In this document: positions 1 through 15,200 of the stretch, in pieces | How positions within the stretch are numbered: the first letter of the stretch is position 1 | How the letters are laid out: each line of letters opens with the position of its first letter | Translations under genes and position numbers: made by a program | Assembly: GCA_027460615.1 (NCBI GenBank) | Contig: JAPZAO010000124.1 | Span: forward strand, 1-25,001 | Reading direction: 5' to 3' | DNA from: Candidatus Methanoperedens sp. | Lineage (GTDB): Archaea > Halobacteriota > Methanosarcinia > Methanosarcinales > Methanoperedenaceae | Length of the DNA stretch: 25,001 bases | Notes under the pieces: generated by a model | What the model was told of the DNA's origin: nothing | The model's input: the letters and a program-made list of their open reading frames with translations, nothing else | Database searches by the model: none

Positions 1-155
1 AGCGTGGTGACAACGTTGCTGCCGACAAAGGGCTTTTTCCCGGTCGCCATTTCATAGAGCACGACACCGAAAGAGAAAAGATCACTGCGGGGATCGAGTT
101 CGTCGCTGCGGGCCTGTTCCGGCGACATATAAACCGCCGTCCCGGGAATGACTAT
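1..155 (-). pseudogene. Hanks-type Ser/Thr protein kinase, C-lobe fragment (runs off the left edge; 5' catalytic part missing)
   Basis: Minus-strand translation of 152..1 gives [51 protein letters not shown]. This contains kinase subdomain VIII (GTxxYMSPE) and IX (DxFSFGVxLYEM). The HRD/DFG and ATP-binding parts should lie upstream, at coordinates above 155, but that position is occupied by the CRISPR repeat. About 57% GC by hand count, the highest in the window. Confidence 0.5.
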
Positions 156-159
156 AATT

Positions 160-269
160 GTTTCAATCCTTGTTTTAGTGGATGTGCTTCTTGAATTAGA
201 ACATATAGTTTGTTCTACTAATTCATTACTCTGTTTCAATCCTTGTTTTAGTGGATGTGCTTCTTGAAT
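160..269 (-). CRISPR. Minimal CRISPR array: two identical 37-bp repeats and one 36-bp spacer
   Basis: GTTTCAATCCTTGTTTTAGTGGATGTGCTTCTTGAAT occurs at 160-196 and 233-269 (37/37 identical). The spacer is 197-232, TAGAACATATAGTTTGTTCTACTAATTCATTACTCT. The reverse complement of the repeat ends in ATTGAAAC, the usual 8-nt crRNA 5' handle. Transcription is therefore on the minus strand, away from cas4. Confidence 0.85.
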
Positions 270-377: not shown

Positions 378-1267
<890 letters not shown>

Positions 1268-1278
1268 TTAAGTTCCTC

Positions 1279-2247
1279 CTATTTTATCAGACTGTTCGCT
1301 ATGCTGTGGCATTCCATCTGGATCGTGTTCCTGACCTTGACATTGCGCCCGTTGTATTCGATTTCCTTATCGAGAGCATCATTTATCGCTGAAATCAACA
1401 CCGCTTTACCATCCTTATTCATGTATAAGCCGCCGGGGATTCTGTCGAATAAGCCATCATGCACCTGTTTTTTTGAAAAAAGGTTTATAACCGTCCTGTC
1501 GATATATATTCTGAAAATCTCAATAAGGTCGAAAACAAAGGATTTCTTGTTATAATTATCGGTGTGCAGGAAGCCCATATATGGGTCAAGTCCTGCGATA
1601 ATACATGCTTTTTCGACATGTGAATACAGAACCCCGTAACCGTAATTGAGGAGGCAGTTGAAGGCATCCTGCGCCGGGTCGCGGCTCCTGCCGTTGAATT
1701 TCCAGGCATCGGGCATGATGCTGCTCAGTGCTTCGAAATATGTCAGCGATGCCATGCCCTCAGTTCCCATAATCGAGCCGCGCTTTTCATCGAGCGAACC
1801 TTTCATGCCCATGAGGTCGTCCTTCAATTGGCTAATTTTCACAATGTACTGCCCGAAAGTCTCATAGTCATCGGGTCGGTTCTTTTTCAGGTCTTTGAGG
1901 AAATCAAGCTGATTTTCAATTTTCTGAACAATCCAGCCGCGCGCCAGGTTGAAACCCACAGATGAGGCTTCAGCTTCAAGCTGCCGGCGCCGGATGAGCG
2001 TTGTGCTACCAAGCTTGGAGTGCCACACCCTGCCGTAAGGATTGCCGAAGTAGTCCAGGAATACAATATCAATGTTGTTCTCAACTGCAAATTCGATAGC
2101 ATCCGTGGTAATGGTCGCTGAAGTTGTTATGAGTATGCTGTCCACCTTGTCTGCTGAGACCTCAAAGCTCTTGTCGTCGTTCTTTACAAGGAAGCAGTTC
2201 TTTTCCTTTTTGAGATACGCGCCGCGCGTGTTTATTACGAGTTGCAT
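1279..2247 (-). CDS. cas1: Cas1 integrase
   Basis: 322 aa with C-terminal catalytic-region motifs (GFLH, DLIEIFR). Immediately upstream of cas2. Its start overlaps the cas6 stop by 13 nt. Confidence 0.9.
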   Translation of the reverse strand: MQLVINTRGAYLKKEKNCFLVKNDDKSFEVSADKVDSILITTSATITTDAIEFAVENNIDIVFLDYFGNPYGRVWHSKLGSTTLIRRRQLEAEASSVGFNLARGWIVQKIENQLDFLKDLKKNRPDDYETFGQYIVKISQLKDDLMGMKGSLDEKRGSIMGTEGMASLTYFEALSSIMPDAWKFNGRSRDPAQDAFNCLLNYGYGVLYSHVEKACIIAGLDPYMGFLHTDNYNKKSFVFDLIEIFRIYIDRTVINLFSKKQVHDGLFDRIPGGLYMNKDGKAVLISAINDALDKEIEYNGRNVKVRNTIQMECHSIANSLIK

Positions 2248-2918
2248 TTTATAACTCCATCTCTCTCCAATTGTTTCACTGTCCCAAAGCCTCTTGAAAC
2301 CGATTTCCCGATGCCAAGATAATCAGGTATGAGGAAGTTGGTACAGAATCCTCCGATGAAGGTCATCACGTTTACATCTTTCAACCTGCTTTTCCTGATA
2401 TTTACATCAACATCGCATTTTATCGTATCGGGCACCTGATAATCTAAAGATTTTGACACGGAAAGAAGGTTCCCAATGAGCGTTTTTCTCAGGAATTCAT
2501 TTCTATCCTCACGACTCTTAAGACCATAGTACTTTTTGTAATTTTCTTGGTTGAGCGCAAGCCATGGCGTGGCGAACTCATAGGAATGTATCTTTTCCGA
2601 AATCCCGAACTCCTGGTTCTTCACAGAGATGCCCTTCTCCACGATCTCATAAACCTCCTCGCCGAGTTTTATTTCATCGTATTTATCATAAACCTGTTTT
2701 AAAACTTCGGCGCCGTCATTGATGCCGACGACCATCGGCGCGCCGCCTATCATCTTGTACTGCACGAGGGGATAGCGATAGATGAGCCTGTCGGCACTGT
2801 GCTGGTGGAGGAGGGAGTATTCGTTGAATTGGGTAGCGAAGAAGCCGCGCAGTTCTGGCGCGCTGCCGGTGATAGGGCGGGTGGAGGCGATGGTGAGGGT
2901 GAAGATTTTCAGGAGCAT
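2235..2918 (-). CDS. cas6: Cas6 (Cas6b-like crRNA endoribonuclease)
   Basis: YRYPLVQYK N-terminal RAMP motif and the Gly-rich C-terminal loop GIGKSVSRGFGTV. I place the start at ATG 2918 (MLLKIFTLTIA) rather than the upstream TTG at 2924. The decayed paralog at 3378 starts at the homologous Met (MNLKTPTLATA). Confidence 0.85.
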   Translation of the reverse strand: MLLKIFTLTIASTRPITGSAPELRGFFATQFNEYSLLHQHSADRLIYRYPLVQYKMIGGAPMVVGINDGAEVLKQVYDKYDEIKLGEEVYEIVEKGISVKNQEFGISEKIHSYEFATPWLALNQENYKKYYGLKSREDRNEFLRKTLIGNLLSVSKSLDYQVPDTIKCDVDVNIRKSRLKDVNVMTFIGGFCTNFLIPDYLGIGKSVSRGFGTVKQLERDGVIKCNS

Positions 2919-2935
2919 TTGCAATCCTCATCTGA

Positions 2936-2983
2936 TTTTATTTCATGATATGTATCAAAGTAATTTTTTATAAATCCGGCGCC
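2936..2983 (-). repeat. Orphan copy of an internal cas6 segment (region encoding ...YDKYDEIK)
   Basis: TTTTATTTCATGATATGTATCAAAG resembles cas6 2667-2692 (about 20 of 25). TTTATAAATCCGGCGCC (2967-2983) is identical to 3257-3273. The minus-strand translation is GAGFIKNYFDTYHEIK, against DGAEVLKQVYDKYDEIK in cas6. Confidence 0.8.
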
Positions 2984-3030
2984 GATAGGAAGCCGATGCA
3001 GCTTCTGTCTATAGAAATAACAAACCACAG
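2978..3030 (+). repeat. Copy A of a roughly 55-bp repeat element
   Basis: GGCGCC-GATAGGAAG-CCGATGCAGCTTC-...-CAAACCACAG. It aligns with copy B (3123-3177) and with the reverse complement of copy C (10214-10269). It is the most diverged copy in its 3' half. Confidence 0.75.
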
Positions 3031-3069
3031 GTGAAAGCAAAGAGCGCAAAGCGAGATGGAATATAAACA

Positions 3070-3098
3070 ACGAACTCAATACGAACTCGTACGAACTC
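3070..3098. repeat. 3x tandem ACGAACTC (period 10-11 bp)
   Basis: ACGAACTC occurs at 3070-3077, 3081-3088 and 3091-3098. Confidence 0.85.
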
Positions 3099-3122
3099 AT
3101 GGTTAAATATTTTAAACTGTTC

Positions 3123-3177
3123 GGCGCGCCAATATGAATCCGATGCAGCCTCAGGTAATCGAAAATATAAACCGCAG
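3123..3177 (+). repeat. Copy B of the roughly 55-bp repeat element
   Basis: GGCGCGCC-AATATGAAT-CCGATGCAGCCTC-AGGTA-ATCGAAAATATAAACCGCAG. Its 3' 20-mer matches the reverse complement of copy C at 19 of 20 positions. Confidence 0.85.
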
Positions 3178-3199
3178 ATGAACGCAGATAAACGCAGAT
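3173..3199. repeat. 3x tandem CGCAGAT (period 10 bp), extending the 3' end of copy B
   Basis: CGCAGAT occurs at 3173-3179, 3183-3189 and 3193-3199, within AACCGCAGATG / AACGCAGATA / AACGCAGATG. Confidence 0.85.
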
Positions 3200-3210
3200 G
3201 TTGTTGATTT

Positions 3211-3378
3211 TCATATTCTCCATATTTTTATTTCATCGTATTTATCATAAATCATCTTTATAAATCCGGCGCCGTCATGAAATCCCGGCGCGCCGTCTGT
3301 CGTGATGCTGCGCCGCGCCTGTGGGATGGGGAGGGCGGGGAGGCGGGCGGTGGCGAGGGTGGGGGTTTTGAGGTTCAT
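3211..3378 (-). pseudogene. Decayed cas6 paralog (N-terminus plus mid segment, internally deleted)
   Basis: From ATG 3378 the translation is MNLKTPTLATARLPALPIPQARRSITTDGAPGFHDGAGFIKMIYDKYDEIKIWRI*. A 26-bp block at 3226-3251 is identical to cas6 2667-2692. The GGCGCC and GGCGCGCC sites are conserved, with about 90 nt and about 9 nt deleted relative to intact cas6, and the product is only 55 aa. The ATG sits 2 nt after the cas3 stop. Confidence 0.8.
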
Positions 3379-3380
3379 AG

Positions 3381-5843
3381 TTAAAAAAGCAAGGTCCCTC
3401 CAGAACACGGTACGAATCCAGTTTCTTTATCATACCTAAACTTTAATTCATCTATTGAGACATAGGCTATTCCATTTTCATTTTCTGGCGCGGGAGCCTT
3501 ATCCTTGGGAATTGAAATTACATATTCATAGAAATCTTTTTTTATTTTTAAAAATTCTAACTTACGTTCAAAAGGTGATTTAATTTCTTGAACTTTATAG
3601 TATTTTTGTCTTACATTCTTTGCTTCATCATCAAGTTCTATAAAAATATCTGTCTTGTAAGAATCCTCTCTTATCAATTCAAAATCAGAAATCGGTATTC
3701 TTTTATTTCTGTCGGGATTTTTGTCATAAAAATACAAATCATAAATTGAATCAATTAATTTAGTTTGTGTTCCAGATTTCGCTTTTGCCAGTTTAAAATA
3801 ATCTTCGATGAGTTCTACAAAATCTACCTCTGGGATTTTATTTCTTTTTCCATTTTGAAATAAAGTATGGACAATATTTAATAAAACAGGATCATAAATC
3901 TTTGTGAATGAACTACCTTTTTCATTAATTAAATTCACTAAATGCATTTCCGCATTATCTAATCGTTTATTTCTATTGCATCTTCCAGCAACCTGTATTA
4001 TAGAATCTAACGGACCCATATCACGATAGACACAATCACAATCAATATCTACTCCTGCTTCGATAAGTTGCGTAGAAACAACTATAATCCTTTGATTATT
4101 TTTTATCGCTTTTCTTGCATTTTCGATTCTTTGCTTTCTTTCTTTCGGCGTGATATTTGTCGATAAATAGCATATTTTAAAAGGTAAACCTAATTCGTGG
4201 ATTTTATCTTTTATTAACTTATGAAACTCTAAAGAAGAACCAATTGTATTAAAAACAAATAAATATGAGTTTTTAGACCAATCATTTAATTCATTACAGA
4301 ACTCTACTATTTGCTTTTCTTTATTGTCTATCTGTAAACATACACGATTTAACTCTTCAGCCTTAAAATGATTTTTATAATTATCAACAAGCTCTTTGTA
4401 TTCTCCCTCATCAAAGATTAATGGCTTTGTAGCTGTCATCAAAATAATTCTACAATTAAAATATTCTGTCATCCCGATTAAAACTTTTCGTACTAAATTC
4501 CAATATTCGATCGGAATATTCTGTGCTTCATCTAAAATAATTATTGAATTCACTATATTATGATACTTCTTTAAGCTTCTATTTTTATATCCAATCAAAC
4601 TGTAAAATAGTTGAATAAAAGTTGTAACAATTACTTCTGATTCCCAGGATTCAATTAAGGCAAGGCTTTCATCCACATCCTTTTCTTTGTCAATATTTTC
4701 TGTTTTATAAAATATTTCTGAAAGATGATGATGTTTTAAAAGATATTGACTTTCGTTATCCTTAAAATCGATAATTTGGCTTAAGACTTCATCGAACACA
4801 GTATAGTTTTGATCTATGATACTTGTAAAAGGCAATGAATAGATAATCCTTGGCTCATTTTTTAGATTAAGATGGTTTTTTAGGATTTTTCGTAGTTTCA
4901 AACCCGCAGCTAAAGAAGTTAATGTTTTACCTGTTCCTGTCGGCGCCGTTAACGTAAAAATTTTTTGATCTATATTCTCAGGATTAGATATATTTTCTAT
5001 TACCGATTTTTGAATCTGATATCTAATAGCATTTATATTGCTCTTGTTTTTTTCTTTAAATTCAGGTTTGTTTAAATGAGTTTCTACAAGAGTATCAGTT
5101 ATTTCTTTTCGTTCAATTTCTTTAATATGTCCAGCGTGTTTTTTATCAGAATCAATTAAGATTGAATAGAGTAATAAGGTAATTAAAAAATAACTTATCT
5201 CTCTATTCTCCTTTTTTGAGTTGCTGTCTGTAAAATCGTAGTTCAATTTTCTTAATGGTTTTATTATTTTATCTAATTCTGGAAAACTCGCAAATGGGGA
5301 TTCATAACGATATAAATTGCATATAATACGTGGAAAATTCAATTCGTAACCTTGAAAAAGGACGGTATATATTTTTTCAATTTCTTTCTCCGACTTCTTT
5401 ATAGACAAAAGTTGTTCTCTGATAAAATTGAATTCTTTATCTAAATTTTTTGATTCTACATCACTATTAATGTCATTCAAATTACCATGATGATGCTTTA
5501 CAATAAAATAACCAAAAAGGGGCAGATAATTATGAATCTTATTATGTTCACCACTTTTGATTTTAACAAATTCTGATAAAACCTCAAACGTGAACAGTGC
5601 AGAAATTAAACCGTGATGAGTTAATCCGCTTTCCGATGTTTTTCCATAAAGGTAATCTTGGAAATATTGTGTAAATTTTCCAAAATCATGTGATATTCCA
5701 ACGAGATATGCAACATCTGATAAAAGATTTTTATCTAAATTAAGTTGCTTATCAAGTAATATTTTTTTTCCATTTTCTCCAACTATCTGAAGATGGTCTT
5801 TTAATCGAATATCTGGATTTAGGTGCGAAAAAAACTCTTTCAT
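3381..5843 (-). CDS. cas3: Cas3 (fused HD nuclease + SF2 helicase)
   Basis: 820 aa. HD-domain motifs (GISHDFGKF, VKHHHGNL), Walker A (LTAPTGTGKT), a DEAQ box (IILDEAQ) and a helicase C-terminal part. About 27% GC. Confidence 0.9.
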   Translation of the reverse strand: MKEFFSHLNPDIRLKDHLQIVGENGKKILLDKQLNLDKNLLSDVAYLVGISHDFGKFTQYFQDYLYGKTSESGLTHHGLISALFTFEVLSEFVKIKSGEHNKIHNYLPLFGYFIVKHHHGNLNDINSDVESKNLDKEFNFIREQLLSIKKSEKEIEKIYTVLFQGYELNFPRIICNLYRYESPFASFPELDKIIKPLRKLNYDFTDSNSKKENREISYFLITLLLYSILIDSDKKHAGHIKEIERKEITDTLVETHLNKPEFKEKNKSNINAIRYQIQKSVIENISNPENIDQKIFTLTAPTGTGKTLTSLAAGLKLRKILKNHLNLKNEPRIIYSLPFTSIIDQNYTVFDEVLSQIIDFKDNESQYLLKHHHLSEIFYKTENIDKEKDVDESLALIESWESEVIVTTFIQLFYSLIGYKNRSLKKYHNIVNSIIILDEAQNIPIEYWNLVRKVLIGMTEYFNCRIILMTATKPLIFDEGEYKELVDNYKNHFKAEELNRVCLQIDNKEKQIVEFCNELNDWSKNSYLFVFNTIGSSLEFHKLIKDKIHELGLPFKICYLSTNITPKERKQRIENARKAIKNNQRIIVVSTQLIEAGVDIDCDCVYRDMGPLDSIIQVAGRCNRNKRLDNAEMHLVNLINEKGSSFTKIYDPVLLNIVHTLFQNGKRNKIPEVDFVELIEDYFKLAKAKSGTQTKLIDSIYDLYFYDKNPDRNKRIPISDFELIREDSYKTDIFIELDDEAKNVRQKYYKVQEIKSPFERKLEFLKIKKDFYEYVISIPKDKAPAPENENGIAYVSIDELKFRYDKETGFVPCSGGTLLF

Positions 5844-5844
5844 G

Positions 5845-6588
5845 TTACATAAATGTTATATTGTCGGTATTTTTTTTATAGGTTACTTTGTAGAAGGGCT
5901 CATTCAAAGATACATTCAGGTCTTTTCCACTTTTTTCAAAAATATATTGCTCCAATCTCGTTATATCCCTATTTTCAGAAAAGTCAGCAGGCATTTTCTC
6001 AATGAGGTATTGCGAATTATCATCTTCAAACTTTAGACCTCGATCTTTAATAGCATTTTTTCTACAAACGCAATTTAATATTGCATCAGTATTTTTTTGT
6101 GGATCGGATAATTCTCCCACATCTATGAACTCTATCTCCGCTAAAAACTCAGTAATTCCTAAATATGGGGGATAAAAAAACTTTTGTTGTTCTAATCTCT
6201 CCTTAAATTCTTGGTGAATTTTTTCATGCTGAAAATAAATTCTATATACTATATCATAATTATTCAATGGGCGCACAATTTCCAATGGTATCGGAGTATG
6301 TTCCATTTTACCTGATAAAATCGAATCCATTGTGTAACTTTTGGTATTAGTATAATTCATTGTCTGCATGATTTTTCTAATCGGGGTTTTAATGGAAACA
6401 GCCACCTTACATTCAGAGTCACCAAACTTTTTATAATAAGTGTCTCTTTCATAACCTAAAAGCCCAGCCACAAGGCCCGTTATTACCGTTCTTGGAGGAA
6501 AGGAATAACTTAAAGAGGATGAATTAGTGAAATATTTTCTAAAATGTGCAAATGGTCCTTTTAGGTCAAATATTAAGATATTTGTCAA
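5845..6588 (-). CDS. cas5: Cas5 (subtype I-B type)
   Basis: The N-terminus FDLKGPFAHFRKYFTNSSSLSYSFPPRTVITGLVAGLLG is the classic Cas5 signature. TTG start with GAGGAG 6 nt upstream. The stop lies 1 nt from the cas3 ATG. Confidence 0.85.
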   Translation of the reverse strand: MTNILIFDLKGPFAHFRKYFTNSSSLSYSFPPRTVITGLVAGLLGYERDTYYKKFGDSECKVAVSIKTPIRKIMQTMNYTNTKSYTMDSILSGKMEHTPIPLEIVRPLNNYDIVYRIYFQHEKIHQEFKERLEQQKFFYPPYLGITEFLAEIEFIDVGELSDPQKNTDAILNCVCRKNAIKDRGLKFEDDNSQYLIEKMPADFSENRDITRLEQYIFEKSGKDLNVSLNEPFYKVTYKKNTDNITFM

Positions 6589-6622
6589 TGAAGTCTCCTC
6601 TATCTGATCTTTGATTTTTCAT

Positions 6623-7582
6623 TTAACTTACCATAATCTGGGCCAATTTTCCCTCTAATCCAGTTAATAAAGAACCTAAATTTCCATCTTTTACATCTTT
6701 TATTTGTAAATCTTTGTGTATCCACCAATTTATTTTTTGAATTTTGCCTTTATTGTAATCTAAAATTTTTTTCAATTCAGATAAATCCATATTATAATCT
6801 GTCACAAATCGAACTGGGGATTTTGCATCGGAATCTATTGCTACATATTTTCTTAGGTCGCCAAGTAAATATTCTGGTGAGTTATATTCTATTCTTAAAT
6901 ACAACCTGGGATATTGCCCGATCTTAGTCCGAGTAGCCATGAGAGGAATACTGTTTACTATTGCTTTATCCAGTAAACCTATATCATCATCCGTCAGATT
7001 GGTTTTCTCTGCTCTTTTTGCACTTATTATTCCATGAAAAGCAATAAGAGAGTAATCAACTCTGTAATCCTTGCCCATTGCCCCTTGTGTTTTCTCACTT
7101 TCAGAGCTAAAATGAGAAGTTATTCCATTTGAGTCAACGAGCGTAACCTTATTTAAAGAGTAGCCCCAATTGAATTGTACTGGCCCAATAAATTTTCTTG
7201 AAGAGCCCGGTTTATTTTTTTCACCTTTAATAGGCATTGTTGCTCCAAAAAAGCGGACATCGACAAGTTCAGAAAGTAAATCATCATCTAATAAATCTTC
7301 TAATTTGCTTACTTTTTTCTGTTGTGCAAGAATGTTTAATCTTTCTGTAGCATTAACCACGCGGCCATCGATGTTACAAACGAAAATTGTTTTTTTAAGA
7401 TATTGTTCAATATAATCTCGAATATATCTTTTTAATCGTAAGTCTGAAACAAGATTTATTTCTCTATCTACGTCCATTCTCGGTTTATTTTCATTGTCTG
7501 GGTCTCCATTCGGATTACACATCTTTGCATCATAGACAAACAATATCTCATGGTTGTTCGAAATAGTTTTTTCATTACTCAT
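6623..7582 (-). CDS. cas7: Cas7 (Csh2/Csd2-like backbone subunit)
   Basis: ILFVYDAKMCNPNGDPDNENKPRMD (NPNGDP motif). ATG at 7582 with GGAGG 8 nt upstream; the track ORF extends to a TTG at 7588. Confidence 0.85.
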   Translation of the reverse strand: MSNEKTISNNHEILFVYDAKMCNPNGDPDNENKPRMDVDREINLVSDLRLKRYIRDYIEQYLKKTIFVCNIDGRVVNATERLNILAQQKKVSKLEDLLDDDLLSELVDVRFFGATMPIKGEKNKPGSSRKFIGPVQFNWGYSLNKVTLVDSNGITSHFSSESEKTQGAMGKDYRVDYSLIAFHGIISAKRAEKTNLTDDDIGLLDKAIVNSIPLMATRTKIGQYPRLYLRIEYNSPEYLLGDLRKYVAIDSDAKSPVRFVTDYNMDLSELKKILDYNKGKIQKINWWIHKDLQIKDVKDGNLGSLLTGLEGKLAQIMVS

Positions 7583-9722
7583 TTTCAATTCCTCCTTCTA
7601 CTATTCTTTCTTCTTCCTTTGGTGGTTCTATTTTACCTGCGGTAATTGCCTGATAAGTTGAAAAACTATAACCAGATAAAATATAAAACACATTCTCCTG
7701 GTTGTTAAGTGGCCAATTACTGGAATAGGTATCCACCAATCGCTTATATTGATGGAATATGGTCTCATTATAGCCTAATATTTTATATTGTGTAAGTTTT
7801 TCAAAAATATCATTTGTCAAATGTATAATTGTCTGGATGTTCATACCTTGAAAATTTATTTTGTTCAAAATAGGTTTGGTTTTATGACCCGATAGGTATT
7901 GCCTGTTTCCAACATTTCCAACAATATACCCAAGCAAAAATAATGCTTTTCTTGGGTCATCATACGTTCCTATATCATTCCAGAATTTTGTAATTTCTTC
8001 TGGAACTGCAATATTTCCTTTTGATTCGTTCATTTTCAACCCTCTTAATAGATTTAGTTTATTGAAGAATAATAATGCAAAGTTTAATTGAATTGTTTTA
8101 AATTCTAAACTGCTTTTTAAATTGATTTTGGGAGAAATATTATATCCATTTCGTCCAAAATGAATTATTCTAATTATTTCAACAAATTGGTCGATTAAAA
8201 ACGAATAATCTATTTTTCTATCTGAAAAAATGGCGTCTAAAATCTCTAAAAATTTTGAATACGCAACATCATTAGCACTAATCGGAATGGTGTAATAAAT
8301 ACCATTCAAGTCAATTTTGAATGTTTTAATATCATTATAACTTTTCGTTACTAATTGGTTTATTTCAAGTTCCATGTTGTTTATTGTGTTCAATCTGCTC
8401 GGTGGCACATCTTTGATTAATCTTAAAATCTTAAAATCACTCTTTCCTTTTCTATAAAATAAATAATTTATAATAAAATTATTTTTTTCATCTCTAAATT
8501 CTTTGAATTGATTTAATTGATTATCGAGGTCGGAGAAAGAATTAAGATTTGTGACCACATTATTTATGTGTTTAATATATCCAGACAATTTCACGAAATC
8601 TAAGTTTGCATTTTTAAAAAGAAGTGTTGGGATGATGTATAGGTTTAACCCCCCGATATATGTTTTCATATTGTTTTCGATAAATCGCTCCCCGGTCATC
8701 AAATCCATATAGCATTCTTTGCAGATATTGAAATTCTTAGTGAATTTACCATCAAAATTGGATGAAAAACCAATTTTATCGGTCATATAAAATTTAAAAT
8801 TTAAGTTAGTAGTATTACTTGTAGTTTGAATATTCGTTTTATCGCAAAGAGAGCATCTACCAGCTTTCAGTAAATTTTTTTTATAATTTTTATTATTAAT
8901 ATCAAAAAGGCAATCTATTTTCTCATCAAAAAGCATTGCCCTGTATTCTTCTCGCTTTATAAGCAAATCATTGTTTAGTTTTACTGAATAAATTGAAACG
9001 CTATCTGTAGTCAAAGATTTACTGTCAAGTAAGTCTTCAATAAATTTCTTCCGCTTATCTTTGTATATCTTTAGTAAGAGATCTTTAATATCTATTTTAT
9101 CTAATTCATCGAGCTTTGATAAAATTTTATTTTTTAGCTCCTCTGAACTGCTTTTGGGAGATACTTCAAACTTTTCTTCTATATCAGAGCAAATATTTTT
9201 AATATCTTTTATTATCGAGTCGATTTCTTTTTTCGTATTTGCAGTTTCAAATCTGTTTTTAACCGTTCCTAACTTGTCTTCAATAAACTTTTTTTTCTCA
9301 TCTACAAAAATAAATTTCTCGGGTTTGATTGTACAGTTTCCATTCTCACTGATGAAAAATTCGTTTAGAACTTTTTTTAGACTTTCTTTGAGGTTTCCTT
9401 CTACCTTGTCCTGAATGTTAGCTATAGAGTCTTCAAGCAGATAATCTATATTTTTTGATGTAAGAAAAATCTGTGGTTTATTGCCAGGATTATTTCCTAA
9501 CCATAGGTATTCCTTTCCAGATTCTTCTTTTACTGCTTCGATCTCACAAATGATTTTCCCTTTTGCTTCATCAAAATTCAATGTCACAATACGTTGTTTA
9601 ATATATTCTCCCTTATTGTTGCGTTTTTCAAGGGGCAATTTTATACAAAGGTTTTCCAATAGCTTTTCTTTTCCTTCCTTTGCATTAATGAATTCCCCGA
9701 TGTTTCTTATCGCCTCAATCAC
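7575..9722 (-). CDS. cas8b: Cas8b (Csh1-like large subunit)
   Basis: 715 aa. Sits at the head of the cas7-cas5-cas3 block. Carries a Cys pair set (CSLCDK ... CKECY). GTG start at 9722 with GGAGGGGG upstream, and no in-frame ATG nearby. About 30% GC. Confidence 0.8.
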   Translation of the reverse strand: MIEAIRNIGEFINAKEGKEKLLENLCIKLPLEKRNNKGEYIKQRIVTLNFDEAKGKIICEIEAVKEESGKEYLWLGNNPGNKPQIFLTSKNIDYLLEDSIANIQDKVEGNLKESLKKVLNEFFISENGNCTIKPEKFIFVDEKKKFIEDKLGTVKNRFETANTKKEIDSIIKDIKNICSDIEEKFEVSPKSSSEELKNKILSKLDELDKIDIKDLLLKIYKDKRKKFIEDLLDSKSLTTDSVSIYSVKLNNDLLIKREEYRAMLFDEKIDCLFDINNKNYKKNLLKAGRCSLCDKTNIQTTSNTTNLNFKFYMTDKIGFSSNFDGKFTKNFNICKECYMDLMTGERFIENNMKTYIGGLNLYIIPTLLFKNANLDFVKLSGYIKHINNVVTNLNSFSDLDNQLNQFKEFRDEKNNFIINYLFYRKGKSDFKILRLIKDVPPSRLNTINNMELEINQLVTKSYNDIKTFKIDLNGIYYTIPISANDVAYSKFLEILDAIFSDRKIDYSFLIDQFVEIIRIIHFGRNGYNISPKINLKSSLEFKTIQLNFALLFFNKLNLLRGLKMNESKGNIAVPEEITKFWNDIGTYDDPRKALFLLGYIVGNVGNRQYLSGHKTKPILNKINFQGMNIQTIIHLTNDIFEKLTQYKILGYNETIFHQYKRLVDTYSSNWPLNNQENVFYILSGYSFSTYQAITAGKIEPPKEEERIVEGGIENE

Positions 9723-10107
9723 TTCCCATCCCCCTCCAGCCCACGCTCTCCCGCCCCCTCATACTCATACTCCTCCCGTGCCCCATCGGCGGGCTTTACA
9801 CCAGCGTTTTCGATACCTTTATTCAAACTATTACCACCAGCCACCTGTTTTTAATGCATTTAATCTCTGCATATTCATCCGTTTTTTATGCGATTGATTA
9901 TTTTGTAAACCACTCATCTCCATATATATCTTTTGAAAGCGGAGTGAAAGTGATTTTTTATTTGCCGCGTGAGATGAACACACTGATTTTGCCTTTGTTC
10001 TATTTCAGTTTTATGATGTTGCATAATTTAGTAACGTTACTTGTGTTACTATAGTCAAGTTCTTAAATAATCGTAACCCAAAAAACAGCCACATCTGGAC
10101 AGAATGA

Positions 10108-10123
10108 ACAGGATTTATCCTGT
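10108..10123. promoter_or_regulatory. Perfect palindrome ACAGGAT-TT-ATCCTGT in the cas8b upstream region
   Basis: 7-bp arms with a 2-bp spacer. A further half-site-like ATCCTGT follows at 10126-10132. Confidence 0.35.
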
Positions 10124-10213
10124 CAATCCTGTTATCCCGTCTGAAAAATGTTTAAATGACATATAAAAATCGAAATTACGGAAACTAACGAACCATGCTA
10201 TAAATTTACAAAT

Positions 10214-10269
10214 CTGCGGTTTATAATTTCGATCTGCATAGAAGCTGCATCGGTTTCCCTGTTGGCGCC
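10214..10269 (-). repeat. Copy C of the roughly 55-bp repeat element, inverted relative to A and B
   Basis: The reverse complement reads GGCGCC-AACAGGGAAA-CCGATGCAGCTTC-TATGCAG-ATCGAAATTATAAACCGCAG. Confidence 0.85.
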
Positions 10270-10297
10270 GTATATATTAATGCGATTTAATATATAC
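10270..10297. promoter_or_regulatory. AT-rich perfect inverted repeat GTATATATTAA-N6-TTAATATATAC (TATA-like, possible divergent promoter or operator)
   Basis: 11-bp arms at 10270-10280 and 10287-10297. It directly abuts copy C and lies about 100 bp upstream of the 10395 ORF. Confidence 0.35.
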
Positions 10298-10394
10298 AAA
10301 TTATATCAAAAAATCTCTTTCTCTCGGAGCGCACAATGAAGTACCCCTCTAACCTAAGATAAACTTAAGAATTAACGAGTAATAAAGAATAATC

Positions 10395-10619
10395 ATGCAA
10401 ATCCAAAAAGTCCTGAATCGGGTTGAAAACCTTGAAAAAGAAATATTGAAGGTAAAACGCAGCCTGTATTCCTACTCGGAAGTCTCTCGCATAAAATCGA
10501 AAAAGAGAATGCACACTGCAGCTCTTGAATTCTTAAAACTACAGGATATTCCGGATAAAATCAAAATAGACTCTGTTGAACTGGTTAGACGAGAGCGAAA
10601 GCATGCAAGAGGATATTAA
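10395..10619 (+). CDS. Small protein, putative antitoxin partner of the downstream PIN-like ORF
   Basis: 74 aa with a coiled-coil-like, basic C-terminus. Its stop overlaps the ATG at 10603 of the next ORF by 17 nt. No family recognised. Confidence 0.4.
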   Translation: MQIQKVLNRVENLEKEILKVKRSLYSYSEVSRIKSKKRMHTAALEFLKLQDIPDKIKIDSVELVRRERKHARGY

Positions 10620-10953
10620 AAACAACAGGGTTACTCTTGATTCTAACGTTCTGATCTCTGCTGTCAAGGAGAACGAAAAATACAGCCGTGATTGCAAAGA
10701 GCTATTAAGCCTTGTGGGCACATCATTTTTACTCTATCAACCTACAGTAACAATCATAGAACTATACAATGGAATTGGCAGGACAAAAGGAGAACCGTCT
10801 GCAAAGAAAGCATTAAAAGATTTTTACAATATGGTTTATCATCTTGAAGACTACGGTTCGCGAAGCCAGTGCGATATGATAAAACTAAAAGATGCTAAAT
10901 ATGATATTTGGCATGTGAGTGATGCGATTAAGGCTATTGGTTTCCATGAGTAA
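10603..10953 (+). CDS. PIN-domain-like (VapC-like) protein, possibly truncated
   Basis: RVTLDSNVLISAV (first PIN acidic strand), TIIELYNGIGR (second acidic residue) and SDAIKAIG (third). It ends before the usual C-terminal xDxF element. The track ORF starts at a TTG at 10576. Confidence 0.5.
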   Translation: MQEDIKNNRVTLDSNVLISAVKENEKYSRDCKELLSLVGTSFLLYQPTVTIIELYNGIGRTKGEPSAKKALKDFYNMVYHLEDYGSRSQCDMIKLKDAKYDIWHVSDAIKAIGFHE

Positions 10954-11079
10954 TTGAAACATATCTCTCAAAAGGCTGGTAGTGATTTCTTATGCGACCG
11001 CCCCTCCACTTCTCCCCTTCCCCAATTTCACAGTATAGAATATAAATTCCAATGACAGGTTTCTGATACAGGTTGCTCT

Positions 11080-12717
11080 ATGCGTGTTCTAATCATTGAT
11101 GGTTACGTGGATGAACCTGCATGCCTCGGCGTACCGCCGTACATGGCGCCCTATCCGAGGTATATAGCCGGCGCTCTTGTTGAAAGAGGGATACAGGAGC
11201 AGGATATAACCTACCGTACCATAGACCAGTTGCGCCAGCGCAAGGAAGTTTTCAGGTTCGACCTCAGCGTAATTATCGCCGGGATGACCGTTCCAGGAAA
11301 ATATCTTCGAGCCTCGCCGATAACCCGGGGCGAGCTCAGGGAACTCTCGCATCTTGAAGGTACAAAGGTAATCGGTGGACCTATCAGGCTGGGTTTCGGG
11401 GAGGAAGGCGGCTCGTCTGCAAAAGAACTGGCTGTTCCGGGATTTACGCTCGCAAAAAAGGACCTAGAGGCATTTGTTTACGATCTGGCTGGCAACCCAA
11501 AAGACCCCGGCGCCGTGGAACACAGGATGAGAACGACATCGGAAATAGGGAGATGGGGCGAAAAGGGCGCATTCATAATCCGCCAGCATCCAGATTACCC
11601 TTATGTGATGTGCGAGCTTGAAACCTACCGCGGATGCCCGCGCCACTCGCACTGCTCTTTCTGCACCGAACCCTTCTACGGGAAACCGGACTACCGTGAA
11701 ATAAAAGATGTGATTAAGGAAGCTGCGGCGCTCTATGCCCACGGCGCGCGCTATTTCAGGATAGGCAGGCAGCCTGATTTATTCATGTACCGGGCAAAAG
11801 ACGGCATCCCGAATCCTGATGCATTGGAGGAACTATACAGCGGGATAAGGAATGCAGCGCCTGAACTCAAGGTGCTTCACATGGACAATGCCAATCCGGT
11901 AACGCTTGCGCGGTATCCGGATGAATCGCGGGAGATTGCGAAAATCATTGTACGATATCACACATCCGGGGACGTGGCGGCGCTTGGCATGGAAAGCGCA
12001 GACCCTGACGTAATAAGGGCGAATGACCTGAAAGCCGCGCCTGATGAAGTTTTTGAAGCCATAAAACTCTTAAACGAAGTCGGGGCTGCGCGGGGAGCAA
12101 GCGGTCTTCCTGAACTTTTGCCCGGGATAAACTTTGTTCATGGCTTGAAGGGCGAGACAAAAAAGACATTTGAGCAAAACTATGAATTCTTAAAAAAAGT
12201 GCTGGATAGCGGCCTCATGGTGCGCAGGGTGAATATCAGGCAGGTAATGACGTTTGCAGGTACCCCGATGTCAGGCCATGACGAGCTTGTAAGGAAAAAC
12301 AAGGATATGTTCCTTCGCTACAAGGAAAAAATCCGAAATGAAATTGACCTTCCCATGCTTCGGCGCGTTGTGCCTGCCGGGACAATTTTGAAAGACGTGA
12401 GGACTGAAGTGTACGATAAAATAACATTTGCCCGCCAGCTTGGCACATACCCTCTTCTTGTCGGAATTCCTTTGAAGCTTGAATTAAACAAATCTTTCGA
12501 TATACTTGTAACTGACCACGGCCATCGGTCTATTACAGGGATTCCGGTGCCCGTAGATATAAACACGGCGCCCGTTAAATTGCTCCAGGTGCTTCCTGGA
12601 ATAGGAAAACAACAGGCTGCAGAAATAATCAGGGGAAAGCCGTTCAGGAACAAAGAGGATGTTATTAATAGGACATCAATCAGGGGATATATATTGGATT
12701 ATATTTCAACGGGTTAA
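11080..12717 (+). CDS. Radical SAM protein with an N-terminal B12-binding-like/Rossmann region and a C-terminal helix-hairpin-helix (COG1031-like)
   Basis: 545 aa. The cluster motif is YRGCPRHSHCSFC (CX5CX2C). The C-terminal VLPGIGKQQAAEIIRGKPF is a helix-hairpin-helix motif. Confidence 0.75.
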   Translation: MRVLIIDGYVDEPACLGVPPYMAPYPRYIAGALVERGIQEQDITYRTIDQLRQRKEVFRFDLSVIIAGMTVPGKYLRASPITRGELRELSHLEGTKVIGGPIRLGFGEEGGSSAKELAVPGFTLAKKDLEAFVYDLAGNPKDPGAVEHRMRTTSEIGRWGEKGAFIIRQHPDYPYVMCELETYRGCPRHSHCSFCTEPFYGKPDYREIKDVIKEAAALYAHGARYFRIGRQPDLFMYRAKDGIPNPDALEELYSGIRNAAPELKVLHMDNANPVTLARYPDESREIAKIIVRYHTSGDVAALGMESADPDVIRANDLKAAPDEVFEAIKLLNEVGAARGASGLPELLPGINFVHGLKGETKKTFEQNYEFLKKVLDSGLMVRRVNIRQVMTFAGTPMSGHDELVRKNKDMFLRYKEKIRNEIDLPMLRRVVPAGTILKDVRTEVYDKITFARQLGTYPLLVGIPLKLELNKSFDILVTDHGHRSITGIPVPVDINTAPVKLLQVLPGIGKQQAAEIIRGKPFRNKEDVINRTSIRGYILDYISTG

Positions 12718-12958
12718 AAATTTGCCATTCTTAATTAGTTGAAGGATGAAAAAATATAGTTTTTGATATTAAGACACAGGCAATGGTAATCCCGACCATT
12801 CTGGTTTTGCTCATAATGACGGTTTTTGTCGCAGTATTTCTCGCAAAGAAGAGGAATCCTGGAAAAGATAATTTTGTTATTTCACCCGAATAGCTAAATA
12901 CATCAAACGCAATAAAATCATATATTGCGGTTATTGGAGGTTAAAGAGGAGGTATAAT

Positions 12959-13186
12959 ATGGATAGAAAAGAAGCTATTAAATTATGCATTTGCAGGCTC
13001 TGCCCAACGTATATCGACTGCGGGGAAGAAATAGCATTTTGCCTTTCAACACCAGGAAAAAGCAAATGCATTAAATTGGAAAAAGGATGTTTGTGCCCGG
13101 GCTGCCCGGTTCATGAAAAAATGGGATTTAAATATGTTTACTATTGCATCCGCGGAAATGAAAAAGACCAGCCAGGAAGAAAGTAA
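12959..13186 (+). CDS. Cys-rich small protein (DUF2769-like)
   Basis: 75 aa with 10 Cys. Motifs CICRLCPTY, CLCPGCPV and YYC. GGAGG-rich RBS (AGAGGAGG) upstream of the ATG. Confidence 0.6.
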   Translation: MDRKEAIKLCICRLCPTYIDCGEEIAFCLSTPGKSKCIKLEKGCLCPGCPVHEKMGFKYVYYCIRGNEKDQPGRK

Positions 13187-13967
13187 AACCTGGAAATGCA
13201 GCGTATGCGGCTACATTTATAAGGGAAATGAGCCCCCTGAAGAGTGCCCCCAGTGCAGCAGTTCATCTAAAGAATATTCGGAACTGAAGGAGAAGCAAAA
13301 GCTTGGATATGATGGGAAAAAATTTGATGTGTTATTGATTAACGGAAGCTCCCACCGGGCTCATAATACCGGCGTTTTAACTGATTTGGCTGAAAAAACC
13401 CTCAAAAGCAAAGGCGTGAGTTTCAGGCGGTTTAACCTGAATGAACTGGATATCCAGCACTGCTGGTGCTGCTACAGCATGAGGGATTCGGCATGCACGT
13501 ACCCGTGCAGGAACCAGCTTGATGATGCGCCTGCGCTTCAAGAAATGATAGTTGATTCCAAGGCAGTGATAATCGCTTCCCCAATAAACTGGAATAATAT
13601 GTCGGCGCGGTTAAAGGATTTCCTGGACAGGCTGACATGCCTTCAAAATCTTTACTTGCTGAAAAAAGAGGGCTTGACAACAGGAAAAGTTATCGGGATT
13701 CTGGTCAACGGCCATGAAGATGGAGGAATGAAAACTGCGATGGACATTTTTATTTACTTCCAGCAAATGGGGTTTGTTCTTGCCCCTTTCGGTTTTATGT
13801 ACAGGACTCATGGCGCGCAATATAACGCAAAAACGGACAATGATTTCTTTAAAGATGACGAAAAATTAAAAAACGAAGTCGAAGGGATTGTCAGCAATGT
13901 TATAGAAACAATGAACCTGGATCTGGAAACTAAACTAAAAGACAGAATAGTTCCTGTCAGCGAATGA
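13158..13967 (+). CDS. Rubredoxin-type zinc ribbon fused to an iron-sulfur-flavoprotein-like / NADPH-dependent FMN reductase-like domain
   Basis: WKCSVCGY...CPQCSS (CxxC-x15-CxxC), then VLLINGSSHR, the compact Cys cluster HCWCCYSMRDSACTYPC, and IIASPINWNNMSARLKDFLDRL. The start is uncertain: the ORF opens at ATG 13113, and ATG 13158 reduces the overlap with the upstream gene to 29 nt. Confidence 0.65.
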   Translation: MKKTSQEESKTWKCSVCGYIYKGNEPPEECPQCSSSSKEYSELKEKQKLGYDGKKFDVLLINGSSHRAHNTGVLTDLAEKTLKSKGVSFRRFNLNELDIQHCWCCYSMRDSACTYPCRNQLDDAPALQEMIVDSKAVIIASPINWNNMSARLKDFLDRLTCLQNLYLLKKEGLTTGKVIGILVNGHEDGGMKTAMDIFIYFQQMGFVLAPFGFMYRTHGAQYNAKTDNDFFKDDEKLKNEVEGIVSNVIETMNLDLETKLKDRIVPVSE

Positions 13968-14046
13968 TATTAAGGCAATGGAAAGCGGTTCTTAATGACA
14001 GATGGTTATAAATACCATCCTGATAAATAATCATTGGAGGTTAATT

Positions 14047-14589
14047 ATGATTAGGAGTAAAATTGTTATCTGGATAGCAGCTATTGCTATCATATCTTCA
14101 TTAATATCGGGCTGTGTGAATCCACCCACTGGAACTCCCACGCCGGTCGTTACACCGGTAACAACACCGACTGCAACACCTATGACGACTCCCGAACCAA
14201 CGCCTGCCACTAGCGTTGTGGTTTTAACAGCCCCGACGACAGCGGTAGCAGGGCAGGGTTTTGTTGTAACCTGGCGGGTCAACAGTCCAACCCAGGTAAC
14301 TATTCCGCATACTGCAGTTCATTATGGTCCGGATTCGAAGTCCGAGCCCCTGACGCTTAAGAGTTATCCAGCTCTGACACCGGTCCAGAACGGAACAATA
14401 CCAAATGATTTCAGTGCAACCATAACCATCGGCAAGACAGGAGTCATATATTACAGGGCGCATGCAATTATCGGCGGCACAAACTACTGGTCTGATGAGC
14501 GGACGATCACCGTAACTGCACCGACGAATGTCTCATCAATGGTCACCCAGACTCCGACGACTACGGCAACCAGTTCCGGAGGATACTGA
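14047..14589 (+). CDS. Lipobox-anchored secreted protein with a Thr/Pro-rich linker and one beta-rich domain, function unknown
   Basis: GGAGG lies 7 nt before ATG 14047. Signal peptide plus LISGC lipobox. About 35 aa of TPTPVVTPVTTPTATPMTTPEPTPAT linker. Then a domain with HTAVHYG and YYRAHA motifs, and a Thr-rich tail. Confidence 0.7.
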   Translation: MIRSKIVIWIAAIAIISSLISGCVNPPTGTPTPVVTPVTTPTATPMTTPEPTPATSVVVLTAPTTAVAGQGFVVTWRVNSPTQVTIPHTAVHYGPDSKSEPLTLKSYPALTPVQNGTIPNDFSATITIGKTGVIYYRAHAIIGGTNYWSDERTITVTAPTNVSSMVTQTPTTTATSSGGY

Positions 14590-14620
14590 TACTGACTTCA
14601 CTTAAAAGTTAATTCAACTT

Positions 14621-14647
14621 AGGAGCCATCCGGTTCCTCATTTTTTT
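14621..14647 (+). terminator. Hairpin plus T7 run downstream of the 14047 gene
   Basis: AGGAGCC-ATCC-GGTTCCT (7-bp stem with one G-U pair), followed by CA and TTTTTTT at 14641-14647. Confidence 0.45.
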
Positions 14648-14719
14648 AAATTTGTCAAAATTTCAGTTCATAACCACAATCCTTATATTACTTTACATGC
14701 ATTGTAAAGTTAGATTCAC

Positions 14720-15178
14720 TTGAAGAAATGGATATTCGTATTACTTGCCCTGCTTGTGCTTATCTCAGGCTGTTTGAACTCCCGGGCGGTTAACACCGGT
14801 ACTTCGCCAAATAAGCCTGATTCAGAAAAATTAACTCTTCAAGGAGTGAAATTCTATACCGACCCATCGATAGCGCTGGGCGCTGCAAAAGAACAGGGGA
14901 AGCCTGTATTTGTTTATGCAAGGTCTGAATCCTGCGGCTGGTGCAAGAAATTCGAAGAAGAGACTTTTACGAATGAGAGTGTTATCAAGACATTAAAAGG
15001 AAACTTCATATTGGTTTCAATAGATGTGTACAACCAGAAGAACGAAACCAGGAATTTCAGGGTACGCGGTACTCCTGCTGAAATATTTCTTGATTCAAAC
15101 GGCACCGAGATAAAAAGGATACCCGGCTATACGGATACTGAAACGTTTCTTAACACAATAAATGATATCGGAAAATAA
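14720..15178 (+). CDS. Thioredoxin-fold lipoprotein (CGWC active site; DsbD-gamma / Thioredoxin_7-like)
   Basis: MKKWIFVLLALLVLISGC signal and lipobox; KPVFVYARSESCGWCKKFEEETF. TTG start; the nearby ATG is out of frame. Confidence 0.75.
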   Translation: MKKWIFVLLALLVLISGCLNSRAVNTGTSPNKPDSEKLTLQGVKFYTDPSIALGAAKEQGKPVFVYARSESCGWCKKFEEETFTNESVIKTLKGNFILVSIDVYNQKNETRNFRVRGTPAEIFLDSNGTEIKRIPGYTDTETFLNTINDIGK

Positions 15179-15180
15179 GA

Positions 15181-15200
15181 CCCCGTATTTAAATACGGGG
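15181..15200 (+). promoter_or_regulatory. Perfect 20-bp palindrome CCCCGTATTTAAATACGGGG between two co-oriented genes
   Basis: 8-bp stem with a TTAA loop, 3 nt after the stop at 15178 and 22 nt before ATG 15223. No following T-run, so it is not a classical terminator. Confidence 0.3.

Follow-up and report, generated by a model that had tools for sequence, protein, structure and literature searches.

Exchange of interference modules between archaeal CRISPR-Cas loci is a known phenomenon: near-identical adaptation modules have been reported together with three different subtypes, with subtype I-B being especially prone to such exchange (Vestergaard, Garrett and Shah 2014, PMC3973734). In the jumbo extrachromosomal elements of Methanoperedens, parts of one cas locus best match different Methanoperedens genomes, which implies that cas modules are exchanged within this genus (PMC13444090). 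Here we analyze the type I-B CRISPR-Cas locus in a 25,001-nucleotide (nt) stretch of Candidatus Methanoperedens sp. DNA (hereafter, the window; positions 1 to 25,001 of contig JAPZAO010000124.1, forward strand, from the metagenome-assembled genome (MAG) GCA_027460615.1). In this locus, a block of four AT-rich effector genes, cas8b-cas7-cas5-cas3, is bordered by G-rich and C-rich tracts and, farther out, by inverted copies of a short repeat (hereafter, the element). A preliminary description of this DNA interpreted the block either as a module brought in wholesale from a low-GC donor or as the cargo of an unrecognized non-autonomous mobile or recombination element. The comparisons described below indicate that the block belongs, probably, to a set of seven or more alternative effector cassettes exchanged in Methanoperedens between two conserved flanks, by recombination within these flanks.

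The order of transcription is cas8b-cas7-cas5-cas3, then, after a 460-nt non-coding stretch, cas6b-cas1-cas2-cas4, followed by the leader and a two-repeat array; the placement of cas6b after cas3 is atypical of type I-B, yet common to the relatives of this locus. The type I-B assignment follows from matches above the cut-offs to the NCBIfam models of Cas8b, Cas7, Cas5b and Cas3, along with Cas6b, Cas1-Cas2-Cas4 and the adjacent array (Pfam, NCBIfam and two RF01320 repeats). The features on which the comparison turns are the following.

9704-10049, minus strand: UP, the conserved upstream arm, with nhmmer matches in L006/L007, L024-26, L028, L038, L041, L042 and L085 (loci defined below)
3380-9703, minus strand: the exchangeable effector cassette, type T1, cas8b-cas7-cas5-cas3, with all four open reading frames (ORFs) intact and 29.6% GC
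7575-9722, minus strand: cas8b (NCBIfam Cas8b/Csh1, TIGR02591/TIGR02556)
6623-7588, minus strand: cas7 (NCBIfam Cas7/Csh2, TIGR02590)
5845-6588, minus strand: cas5 (NCBIfam Cas5b, TIGR02592)
3381-5843, minus strand: cas3 (NCBIfam Cas3 HD and helicase), intact, 820 amino acids (aa)
3187-3379, minus strand: R1, a cas6b 5' pseudogene stub, its ATG (3376-3378) being separated by 2 nt from the cas3 stop; the G-rich tract 3321-3366 falls within the stub
378-2918, minus strand: resident processing and adaptation genes, of middling GC, kept across Methanoperedens loci; GC at third codon positions (GC3) 0.41-0.59
2235-2918, minus strand: cas6b (Pfam Cas6b_N and Cas6b_C)
1279-2247, minus strand: cas1 (NCBIfam TIGR00287)
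974-1267, minus strand: cas2 (NCBIfam TIGR01573)
378-977, minus strand: cas4 (NCBIfam TIGR00372)
160-269, minus strand: CRISPR array of two 37-nt repeats and one spacer (Rfam RF01320, CRISPR-DR7, two matches of 51.8 bits; repeat family D6)

Related loci, denoted here by L numbers, were gathered by exact Cas1 and Cas3 sequence look-ups and by searches for Cas6b relatives; exact-protein look-ups with Cas6b taken with its TTG start and with the radical-SAM protein encoded next to the locus produced no match. An identical Cas6b sequence is on record for Candidatus Methanoperedens sp. In the Methanoperedens-type loci, identity to the window is 78-90% in Cas6b, 79-95% in Cas1 and 93-100% in Cas2; across L006-L045, the amino acid identity of Cas6b, Cas1, Cas2 and Cas4 to the window is 78-100%. 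L002 (GCA_027460485.1) is the same locus, 99.97% identical. The most telling relative is L006/L007 (GCA_049690315.1), in which the radical-SAM neighbor is common with the window (95% aa identity), and Cas1, Cas2, Cas4 and Cas6b are 95%, 100%, 95% and 90% identical, respectively, but the effectors are unrelated to those of the window: a 579-aa Cas8 without a family match, a DevR-type Cas7, Cas5 and a 745-aa Cas3. The nucleotide homology between the window and L007 covers the radical-SAM gene (12707-11022, 91.8%), UP (10049-9704, 82.5%), R1 (3379-3187, 90.7%, despite the non-homologous cas3 genes), cas6b (91%) and the region from cas1 to the leader (91.8%), that is, the two loci occupy the same site and share its constituents at 82-92% nucleotide identity. 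Between 9703 and 3380, there is no nucleotide alignment with L007: homology is lost at 9704, after the first 19 nt of cas8b, and is regained at 3379, at the ATG of the cas6b pseudogene stub. Accordingly, the replaceable unit is 3380-9703 of the window (6.3 kb).

Altogether, Methanoperedens-type loci contain, between the same flanks, seven or more effector cassettes that are not orthologous to one another, one of them a type I-D module. The search for alternative modules at the same site that was suggested in the preliminary description thus yielded a whole series, and the replaceable effector module postulated there is supported: relatives with near-identical adaptation genes, and even with the same radical-SAM neighbor, hold non-homologous modules.

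T1 (the window type): window, L002, L021, L024-26, L028
T1b (hybrid): L039
T2 (DevR type): L006/L007, L029, L074
T3: L008-10, L040
T4: L038, L041, L042
T5: L035
T6 (brings its own low-GC cas6): L085
I-D (type I-D module): L044/L045

In the comparison by cassette type, Cas2 is 93-96% and Cas1 79-89% identical in the loci with T1, T1b, T2-T6 and I-D. Over the full range of Methanoperedens-type loci (93-100% and 79-95%, as given above), the effectors are only 0-46% identical or belong to the other subtype, I-D; the CRISPR repeats are 91-95% identical across the T1, T1b and T2 loci. The T1b cassette is mosaic in structure: identity of 88.5% between L039 (5468-7122) and the window (5171-3517) is restricted to the 3' 1.65 kb of cas3, with the short alignable stretches in the rest of the cassette at 64-81%, which implies a crossover inside cas3, so that crossovers are not confined to the arms. 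The I-D module is complete in L044 (3128-9748) and L045, where Cas3', Cas10d, Csc2, Csc1 and its own cas6 lie upstream of a cas6b-cas1-cas2-cas4 set that is 80-94% identical to that of the window. Related loci also contain inserted MNT/HEPN and AbiEi/AbiEii gene pairs, located either between cas3 and cas6b or between cas6b and cas1 (L008 7342-10004, L021 4507-5381, L024 13361-15449, L006 7251-8082); in L024, the start of cas6b is overlapped by a HEPN gene, and ahead of the pair lies an 85-aa Cas6b_N fragment.

Both flanks carry traces of past replacements. Upstream, UP consists of a promoter-like segment, CACTTTCAC..CGCTTTCAAAAGATATATATGG, with a TATA-like sequence at about 9922-9935, a G-rich 5' untranslated region (UTR) of about 175 nt containing GGAGG, and the first 19 nt of cas8b; in the alignment of UP sequences, the same succession is apparent, with a conserved promoter-like box CACTTTCAC..CGCTTTCAAAAGATATATA, the G-rich 5' UTR with GGAGG and the first cas8b codons (MIEAI..). 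L007 retains GTGATTGAGGCGATAAAAA followed by a stop, the six-codon remnant of a cas8b of the T1-like kind, with its own cas8 starting just downstream; therefore, a T1-like cassette was replaced by T2 in the lineage of L007, not in that of the window. Downstream, R1 matches residues 59-85 of Cas6b (BLASTP, E 5e-9), and its N-terminus mirrors the MNLKTFTLTLASTRP start of the relatives, in agreement with the early observation that the left G-rich tract is the N-terminus of a cas6 remnant. In every cassette type, the cas6b ATG is located 0-12 nt after the cas3 stop, with cas6b either intact (L042, L074) or reduced to the R1 stub; R1 follows cas3 in T1, T2, T3, T4 and T1b. The arrangement with cas3 abutting an intact cas6b (L042, L074) is presumably ancestral. 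Furthermore, the flanks have been reassorted: there are two flank families, UPa/R1a and UPb/R1b, each paired with several cassette types, and T4 is found with both upstream families, abutting an intact cas6b in L042 and R1b in L038/L041.

The composition of the block is as discordant as initially described. GC drops abruptly, to 24-35% in segments spanning 3500-9500 compared to 42-55% for host genes; the block as a whole (3381-9722) has 29.6% GC, against 45.9% for cas6b-cas1-cas2, noted earlier as being in the mid-40s, and 46.1% for host DNA (11080-25001), and the switch at the cas3 stop and the cas8b start is sharp in both GC and homology. The contrast is stronger at synonymous sites than in overall composition: GC3 is 0.21-0.28 in cas3, cas5, cas7 and cas8b, 0.59 in cas6b and cas1, and 0.44-0.62 in host genes, so that the codon usage of the block is strongly discordant with the rest of the locus. 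The tetranucleotide distance to the host is 0.52-0.62 within the block compared to 0.18-0.34 outside, two to three times that of host chunks. By GC3 and tetranucleotide usage, the block thus qualifies as compositionally foreign (horizontally circulating) DNA. The same holds for GC beyond the window: all Methanoperedens cassettes have GC of 0.27-0.38 compared to 0.42-0.49 for the adjoining cas6b/cas1. In the outgroup locus L050, homologous effectors have GC of 0.52-0.57 and the adaptation genes 0.50-0.55; therefore, low GC is not intrinsic to these proteins. The AT-richness of all cassette alleles (GC3 of 0.2-0.3) fits a fast-turnover, horizontally circulating gene pool.

We propose that UP, with its promoter-like region, G-rich 5' UTR and first cas8b codons, and the C-rich 5' end of cas6b, here the R1 stub directly after the cas3 stop, would act as the two arms of a docking site, such that DNA from another Methanoperedens-type locus would replace the whole cassette by recombination in these arms. 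Some of the events may have been homology-facilitated illegitimate joins that left cas6b 5' stubs and cas8b stubs behind; the apparent scars of such joins include R1, a second cas6b fragment fused to element copy A (see below), the 85-aa Cas6b_N fragment in L024 and the cas8b stub in L007. Such replacement would keep the spacers, the repeat, Cas6b and the adaptation genes, changing the interference machinery without loss of immune memory, and might be driven by anti-defence pressure. The element on the cas6b side would probably serve as promoter/operator DNA; the element also accompanies toxin-antitoxin insertions, including the one with copy C.

Several considerations weigh against this scenario of cassette exchange by recombination in the flanks. 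The recombination events and their breakpoints are deduced from homology blocks. The left junction of T6 (L085) lies inside the G-tract, and the I-D locus L044 lacks both UP and R1; therefore, a simple double crossover in the arms cannot explain every event. No donor replicon was found: a search of viral contigs with the element pattern and Cas7 yielded no matches, and a search of plasmids with the block yielded only a 3% match, to cas3 of a Deferribacter plasmid. The persistent low GC of the cassettes could reflect selection rather than turnover, and it is sequence motifs that suggest a promoter or operator function for UP and for the element.

The alternatives involve the element, the copies of which in the window are listed here together with the toxin-antitoxin-like genes next to copy C.

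2940-3050, minus strand: element copy A (profile hidden Markov model (HMM), E 4.7e-24), with its core joined at GGCGCC to a cas6b-derived AT-rich segment
3084-3205, minus strand: element copy B (HMM E 1.4e-32), the fullest copy in the window, without the left hairpin arm
10211-10297, plus strand: element copy C (HMM E 4.4e-17), in the orientation opposite to A and B, with the toxin-antitoxin pair about 100 nt downstream
10395-10953, plus strand: toxin-antitoxin-like pair, consisting of a 74-aa ORF (10395-10619) and a PIN-domain protein (10576-10953)

The pattern GGTTTNTNNTTTCNATN{5,10}GCTGCATCGG matches at 2993-3026 (minus), 3140-3173 (minus) and 10218-10253 (plus), compared to 0 matches in 100 shuffles, so that the three initially reported copies, with C opposite to A and B, are genuine; copies B and C are complementary at 21/22 positions. 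The size of about 55 bp that was originally assigned to the element is an underestimate, given that the HMM extends all three copies to the boundaries listed. In copy A, a TATA-like TTTATAAA is located at 2968-2975, some 50 nt ahead of the cas6b ATG, and, judging from this motif, copy A is the probable promoter region of the cas6b operon. Copy B combines the core and three ATCTGCGTTY iterons with GGCGCGCC and a TATA-like GAACAGTTTAAAATATTTAAC; tandem repeats were detected at 3173-3200 and at 3070-3099, the latter being three GAGTTCGTA iterons that follow the copy. Copy C departs from the other copies right after GGCGCC; more generally, GGCGC(GC)C is the exact point at which the element copies part, continuing into four or more distinct right-hand sequences. 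Full copies, found in L016 and L017, are imperfect hairpins of about 105 nt (z -3 to -4) in units of up to about 280 nt, with the layout GGCGCCGAT..CGATGCAGC, three ATCTGCGTTY iterons and the core, then GCTGCATCG..ATCGGCGCGCC. The copies in the window are right halves of this iteron-bearing palindromic intergenic repeat (about 105-280 nt) and show no fold signal (z +0.97 for B and -1.06 for C). Three phased sets of repeats of about 10 bp flank the element core, namely, CGCAGATGAA x3 (3173-3200), ACGAACTCAAT x3 (3070-3099) and CTTTGCG-like x3 (about 3040-3060); such sets recur in other genomes, which suggests protein-binding iterons. The possibility that the whole element is a decayed cas6b fragment was considered and rejected: only R1 and the part of copy A after GGCGCC are cas6b-derived, and the core occurs at non-cas sites too.

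The tracts at the two borders were described correctly: tract 3321-3366 is 72% G and tract 9724-9785 is 60% C on the plus strand. The left tract is the antisense of the C-rich N-terminal codons of cas6b, and the right tract belongs to the 5' UTR of UP, which is G-rich on the minus strand. The idea that the two tracts are homologous mirror images did not survive the controls: the local alignment score of 23 was reached by 147 of 2000 shuffles, and the same score was obtained in the reversed-sequence control, so that the tracts are not detectably homologous and their similarity is compositional only, as the accompanying caution about low-complexity coincidence had anticipated. A predicted RNA duplex between the tracts (-90.5 kcal/mol compared to -68 +/- 6 for mononucleotide shuffles) was given no weight because this control destroys base runs. 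Both tracts are conserved in all Methanoperedens-type loci examined, above the 99th percentile of the background, and absent in the outgroup loci L050, L053, L066, L073 and L078. For each tract, there is a mundane explanation, one holding the ribosome-binding region and the other being the N-terminal codons of cas6b. In the cas6b stub after cas3 of L021 (4226-4480), the C-run tract has lengthened to over 100 nt (CCCCACCCCCC...CCCCCCTCCCCCACCC...); hence, a border tract can grow rather than decay. A third C-rich tract, CGACCGCCCCTCCACTTCTCCCCTTCCCC, is located at 10995-11025 of the window, at the far end of a toxin-antitoxin insertion that is absent from L007.

These features raise the question whether the borders themselves promote recombination, that is, whether the G-run/C-run tracts, prone to form G-quadruplexes (G4) or R-loops, and/or the GGCGCGCC-ended hairpin repeat actively stimulate exchange. 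The phyletic pattern of the tracts, the location of two of the three strict G4 motifs of the window exactly at the borders, the divergence of the element copies exactly at GGCGC(GC)C and the hairpins of the full copies would be compatible with such a role. Nevertheless, the strict G4 motifs are not conserved in relatives, the C-tract of cas6b is equally C-rich where the gene is intact, the G-tract includes the ribosome-binding GGAGG, the cassette junctions are not at the element, and there is no linked recombinase, so that we consider stimulated exchange unlikely, albeit the least unlikely of the alternatives. Still somewhat less plausible is the more elaborate version, in which the border features and the iteron hairpin repeat form a dedicated docking and switching apparatus that actively promotes the exchange of both effector and toxin-antitoxin cassettes in Methanoperedens. 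If such an apparatus existed, it would be analogous to the G4-stimulated cassette gene conversion in antigenic variation, and an AT-rich cassette reservoir might reside on Borg-like extrachromosomal elements (about 33% GC). The Borgs of Methanoperedens do have GC of about 33% (PMC9605863; PMC13444090); we found no evidence linking them to these cassettes.

The other scenario that we deem improbable, to about the same degree as the dedicated apparatus, is a single recent import, whereby the native effectors of this particular genome gave way to a Cascade-cas3 block acquired from a phylogenetically distant organism of low GC. The GC3 and tetranucleotide usage of the block, far from those of the rest of the contig, and the abrupt compositional borders are what such an import would produce; however, all other cassette types are equally low in GC, and the cas8b stub marks the lineage of L007 as the swapped one. 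Moreover, the nearest Cas3 relatives listed, at 71-96% identity, are, where source-named or where the contig was fetched, from Methanoperedens/Methanoperedenaceae or same-architecture loci, and the next named relatives, at 51-59%, are scattered among Methanosarcina, Methanoregula and others. Finally, the T1 cassette, cas6b and cas1-cas4 are 89%, 86% and 83% identical, respectively, between the window and L024/L028, that is, cassette and adaptation genes are similarly diverged and therefore co-diverged. Judging from these identities, the cassette in the window is probably an old resident, its AT-richness being long-standing. Thus, of the original proposal of wholesale replacement by a cassette from a low-GC donor, the replaceable cassette is supported, but an identifiable donor is not: the nearest Cas3 relatives, where named or fetched, are from Methanoperedenaceae or from loci built in the same way, and the visible swap is in the L007 lineage.

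Even lower is the probability that the block is the cargo of a non-autonomous mobile element, with the 55-bp copies, possibly together with the G/C tracts, as inverted ends. In the window, L002 and L007, inverted copies do lie on both sides of the block, but it is the cargo that varies between loci, whereas the element and both tracts keep their places and do not travel with it. In nearly all related loci, including the I-D locus, the profile HMM detects a sense copy between the resident cas6b and the cassette, regardless of the cassette type; the element, therefore, belongs to the cas6b side. Inverted copies upstream of cas8 were detected in the window and L002 (one each), in L007 (two) and, weakly, in L041 (E 5e-4), with no clear counterpart in the other loci with upstream sequence, including L024-26, L028 and L008-10. 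In addition, the positions at which homology breaks are internal to the element copies, by about 180 nt on the left and by about 500 nt on the right; the half-elements of the window lack hairpin potential; there is no transposase or integrase among the window ORFs; and no target duplication is seen at 3380 or 9703. Copy C lies in an insertion of about 1 kb (about 10050-11021) that carries the PIN toxin-antitoxin pair and is absent from the syntenic L007 (the PIN domain in the window scores 23.5 bits in Pfam, just below the cut-off; the L002 gene call has PF01850). Given that the inverted upstream copy is not conserved and that copy C is part of this insertion, the inverted bracket is a local by-product of toxin-antitoxin-associated repeats rather than the two ends of a mobile element.

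The distribution of the element across genomes points the same way. A strict pattern scan of 185,579 species genomes found seven stretches, six in Methanoperedens MAGs; three of the element loci are non-cas, with the element between small toxin-antitoxin pairs (RHH-PIN, DUF4258-DUF2283, HicB-HicA) in core-gene neighborhoods, and no recombinase, integrase or transposase was found near these copies in the 8-kb loci. The element is thus not restricted to cas module boundaries, even though a sense copy before cas6b is nearly universal in the related loci, and the suggestion that it moves Cascade-cas3 blocks is not supported. A single match to the strict pattern in a Verrucomicrobiae MAG (L015 1993-2030) has unrelated, GC-rich flanks and is probably due to chance. 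In other Methanoperedens MAGs, an intergenic unit of about 280 nt with the element hairpin separates toxin-antitoxin cassettes (L016 6836-7116, L017 1397-1632 and 2540-2834, L020 7703-7832) that sit among core genes: CODH/ACS (carbon monoxide dehydrogenase/acetyl-CoA synthase), ribosomal proteins and QueC. The separation of toxin-antitoxin cassettes by hairpin repeats in L017 is reminiscent of integrons, but no integrase was found in the 8-kb loci and no attC R'/R'' core (GTTRRRY) was detected, by eye inspection only. As for a CRISPR-associated transposon (type I-B CAST, Tn7-like), no tnsA/B/C or TniQ was found among the window ORFs scanned, and Cas3 is intact, not lost.

An assembly chimera, with the low-GC block of another organism mis-joined into a Methanoperedens contig, has a negligible probability: although several short-read contigs end 19-130 nt from the borders, the same junctions are found in independent assemblies: across both borders, identity to the NCBI MAG of L002 is 99.97%, L003 and L004 each cover the two borders, and the T1 cassette is joined to cas6b-cas1 in L022, L024-26 and L028. 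The Logan short-read contigs L003, L004, L107, L108 and L005 each contain exactly one T1 cassette and end 19-130 nt past the borders, which is consistent either with branching of the assembly graph where the borders are polymorphic or with a loss of coverage over the G/C-run tracts.

Comparison of the window with L002 yielded several further observations. The 99.97% identity extends over 1966-10871, that is, the cas locus and half of the PIN gene, and outward from 10872 falls to 96.5% and then to 92%, which suggests that the locus as a whole has recently recombined or been transferred between strains. Between its radical-SAM and flavoprotein genes, L002 has two additional genes; it lacks 96 nt of cas1 (window 1870-1965, an in-frame deletion) and 55 nt of cas4 (window 838-892, a frameshift). 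The array itself, the only structured RNA that an Rfam scan of the window detected, ends at the following feature.

1-158, minus strand: Ser/Thr protein-kinase fragment (translated), adjoining the array

This fragment is fused directly to the distal repeat, and the array has two repeats here compared to at least eight in L002. Thus, damaged adaptation genes go with the long array in one strain, and intact ones with a two-repeat array in the other. The short array abutting the kinase fragment might reflect either a deletion or rearrangement or an assembly join.

If the block is indeed an exchangeable cassette, the locus presents a nucleotide-resolution case of an archaeon that can swap its CRISPR interference machinery yet keep the spacers, the repeat, Cas6b and the adaptation genes, with at least seven alternative cassettes, including one of another subtype, at one conserved site in a single genus. 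Methanoperedens populations would then offer the opportunity to test effector turnover under anti-CRISPR pressure, the tolerance of Cascade variants for one repeat and the location of the AT-rich pool. The locus also carries a warning for annotation: composition jumps and repeats at the borders of cas modules need not signal a mobile element.

Among the known systems, the element is comparable to MITE/REP-like repeats (miniature inverted-repeat transposable elements and repetitive extragenic palindromes) and to attC sites in that its full copies in L016 and L017 end in GGCGCC/GGCGCGCC and are dispersed intergenically beside toxin-antitoxin cassettes; unlike these, it has no transposase or integron integrase nearby and no identified target duplications, and the copies in the window are truncated halves. 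The locus, accordingly, is not a transposon, not a CRISPR-associated transposon and not a demonstrable integron. In O-antigen and capsule loci, low-GC non-homologous blocks are swapped by recombination in conserved flanking genes under diversifying selection. The locus described here resembles these in holding such blocks at one chromosomal site between conserved flanks, but the cargo is an immune effector complex that has to be compatible with the retained Cas6b, repeat and spacers, and the arms are provided not by housekeeping genes but by a pseudogene stub and a 5' UTR. The cas locus of the jumbo Methanoperedens elements is a hybrid, of type I/III-A, whose extrachromosomal carrier has about 40% GC (PMC13444090), whereas the present one is chromosomal, with a I-B effector block of about 30% GC. 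The remaining parallel is the exchange of archaeal interference modules, which likewise combines near-identical adaptation modules with non-orthologous type I modules of different subtypes and interspersed toxin-antitoxin genes (PMC3973734). What distinguishes the Methanoperedens locus is that its borders are mapped to the nucleotide, to a promoter/5' UTR arm and a cas6b 5' arm, that the scars of the swaps are visible as cas6b and cas8b stubs, and that at least seven alleles occur in one genus, each about 15 GC points below the adaptation genes. The cassette replacement described here is, then, a well-resolved new instance of the known modular exchange of archaeal interference modules.

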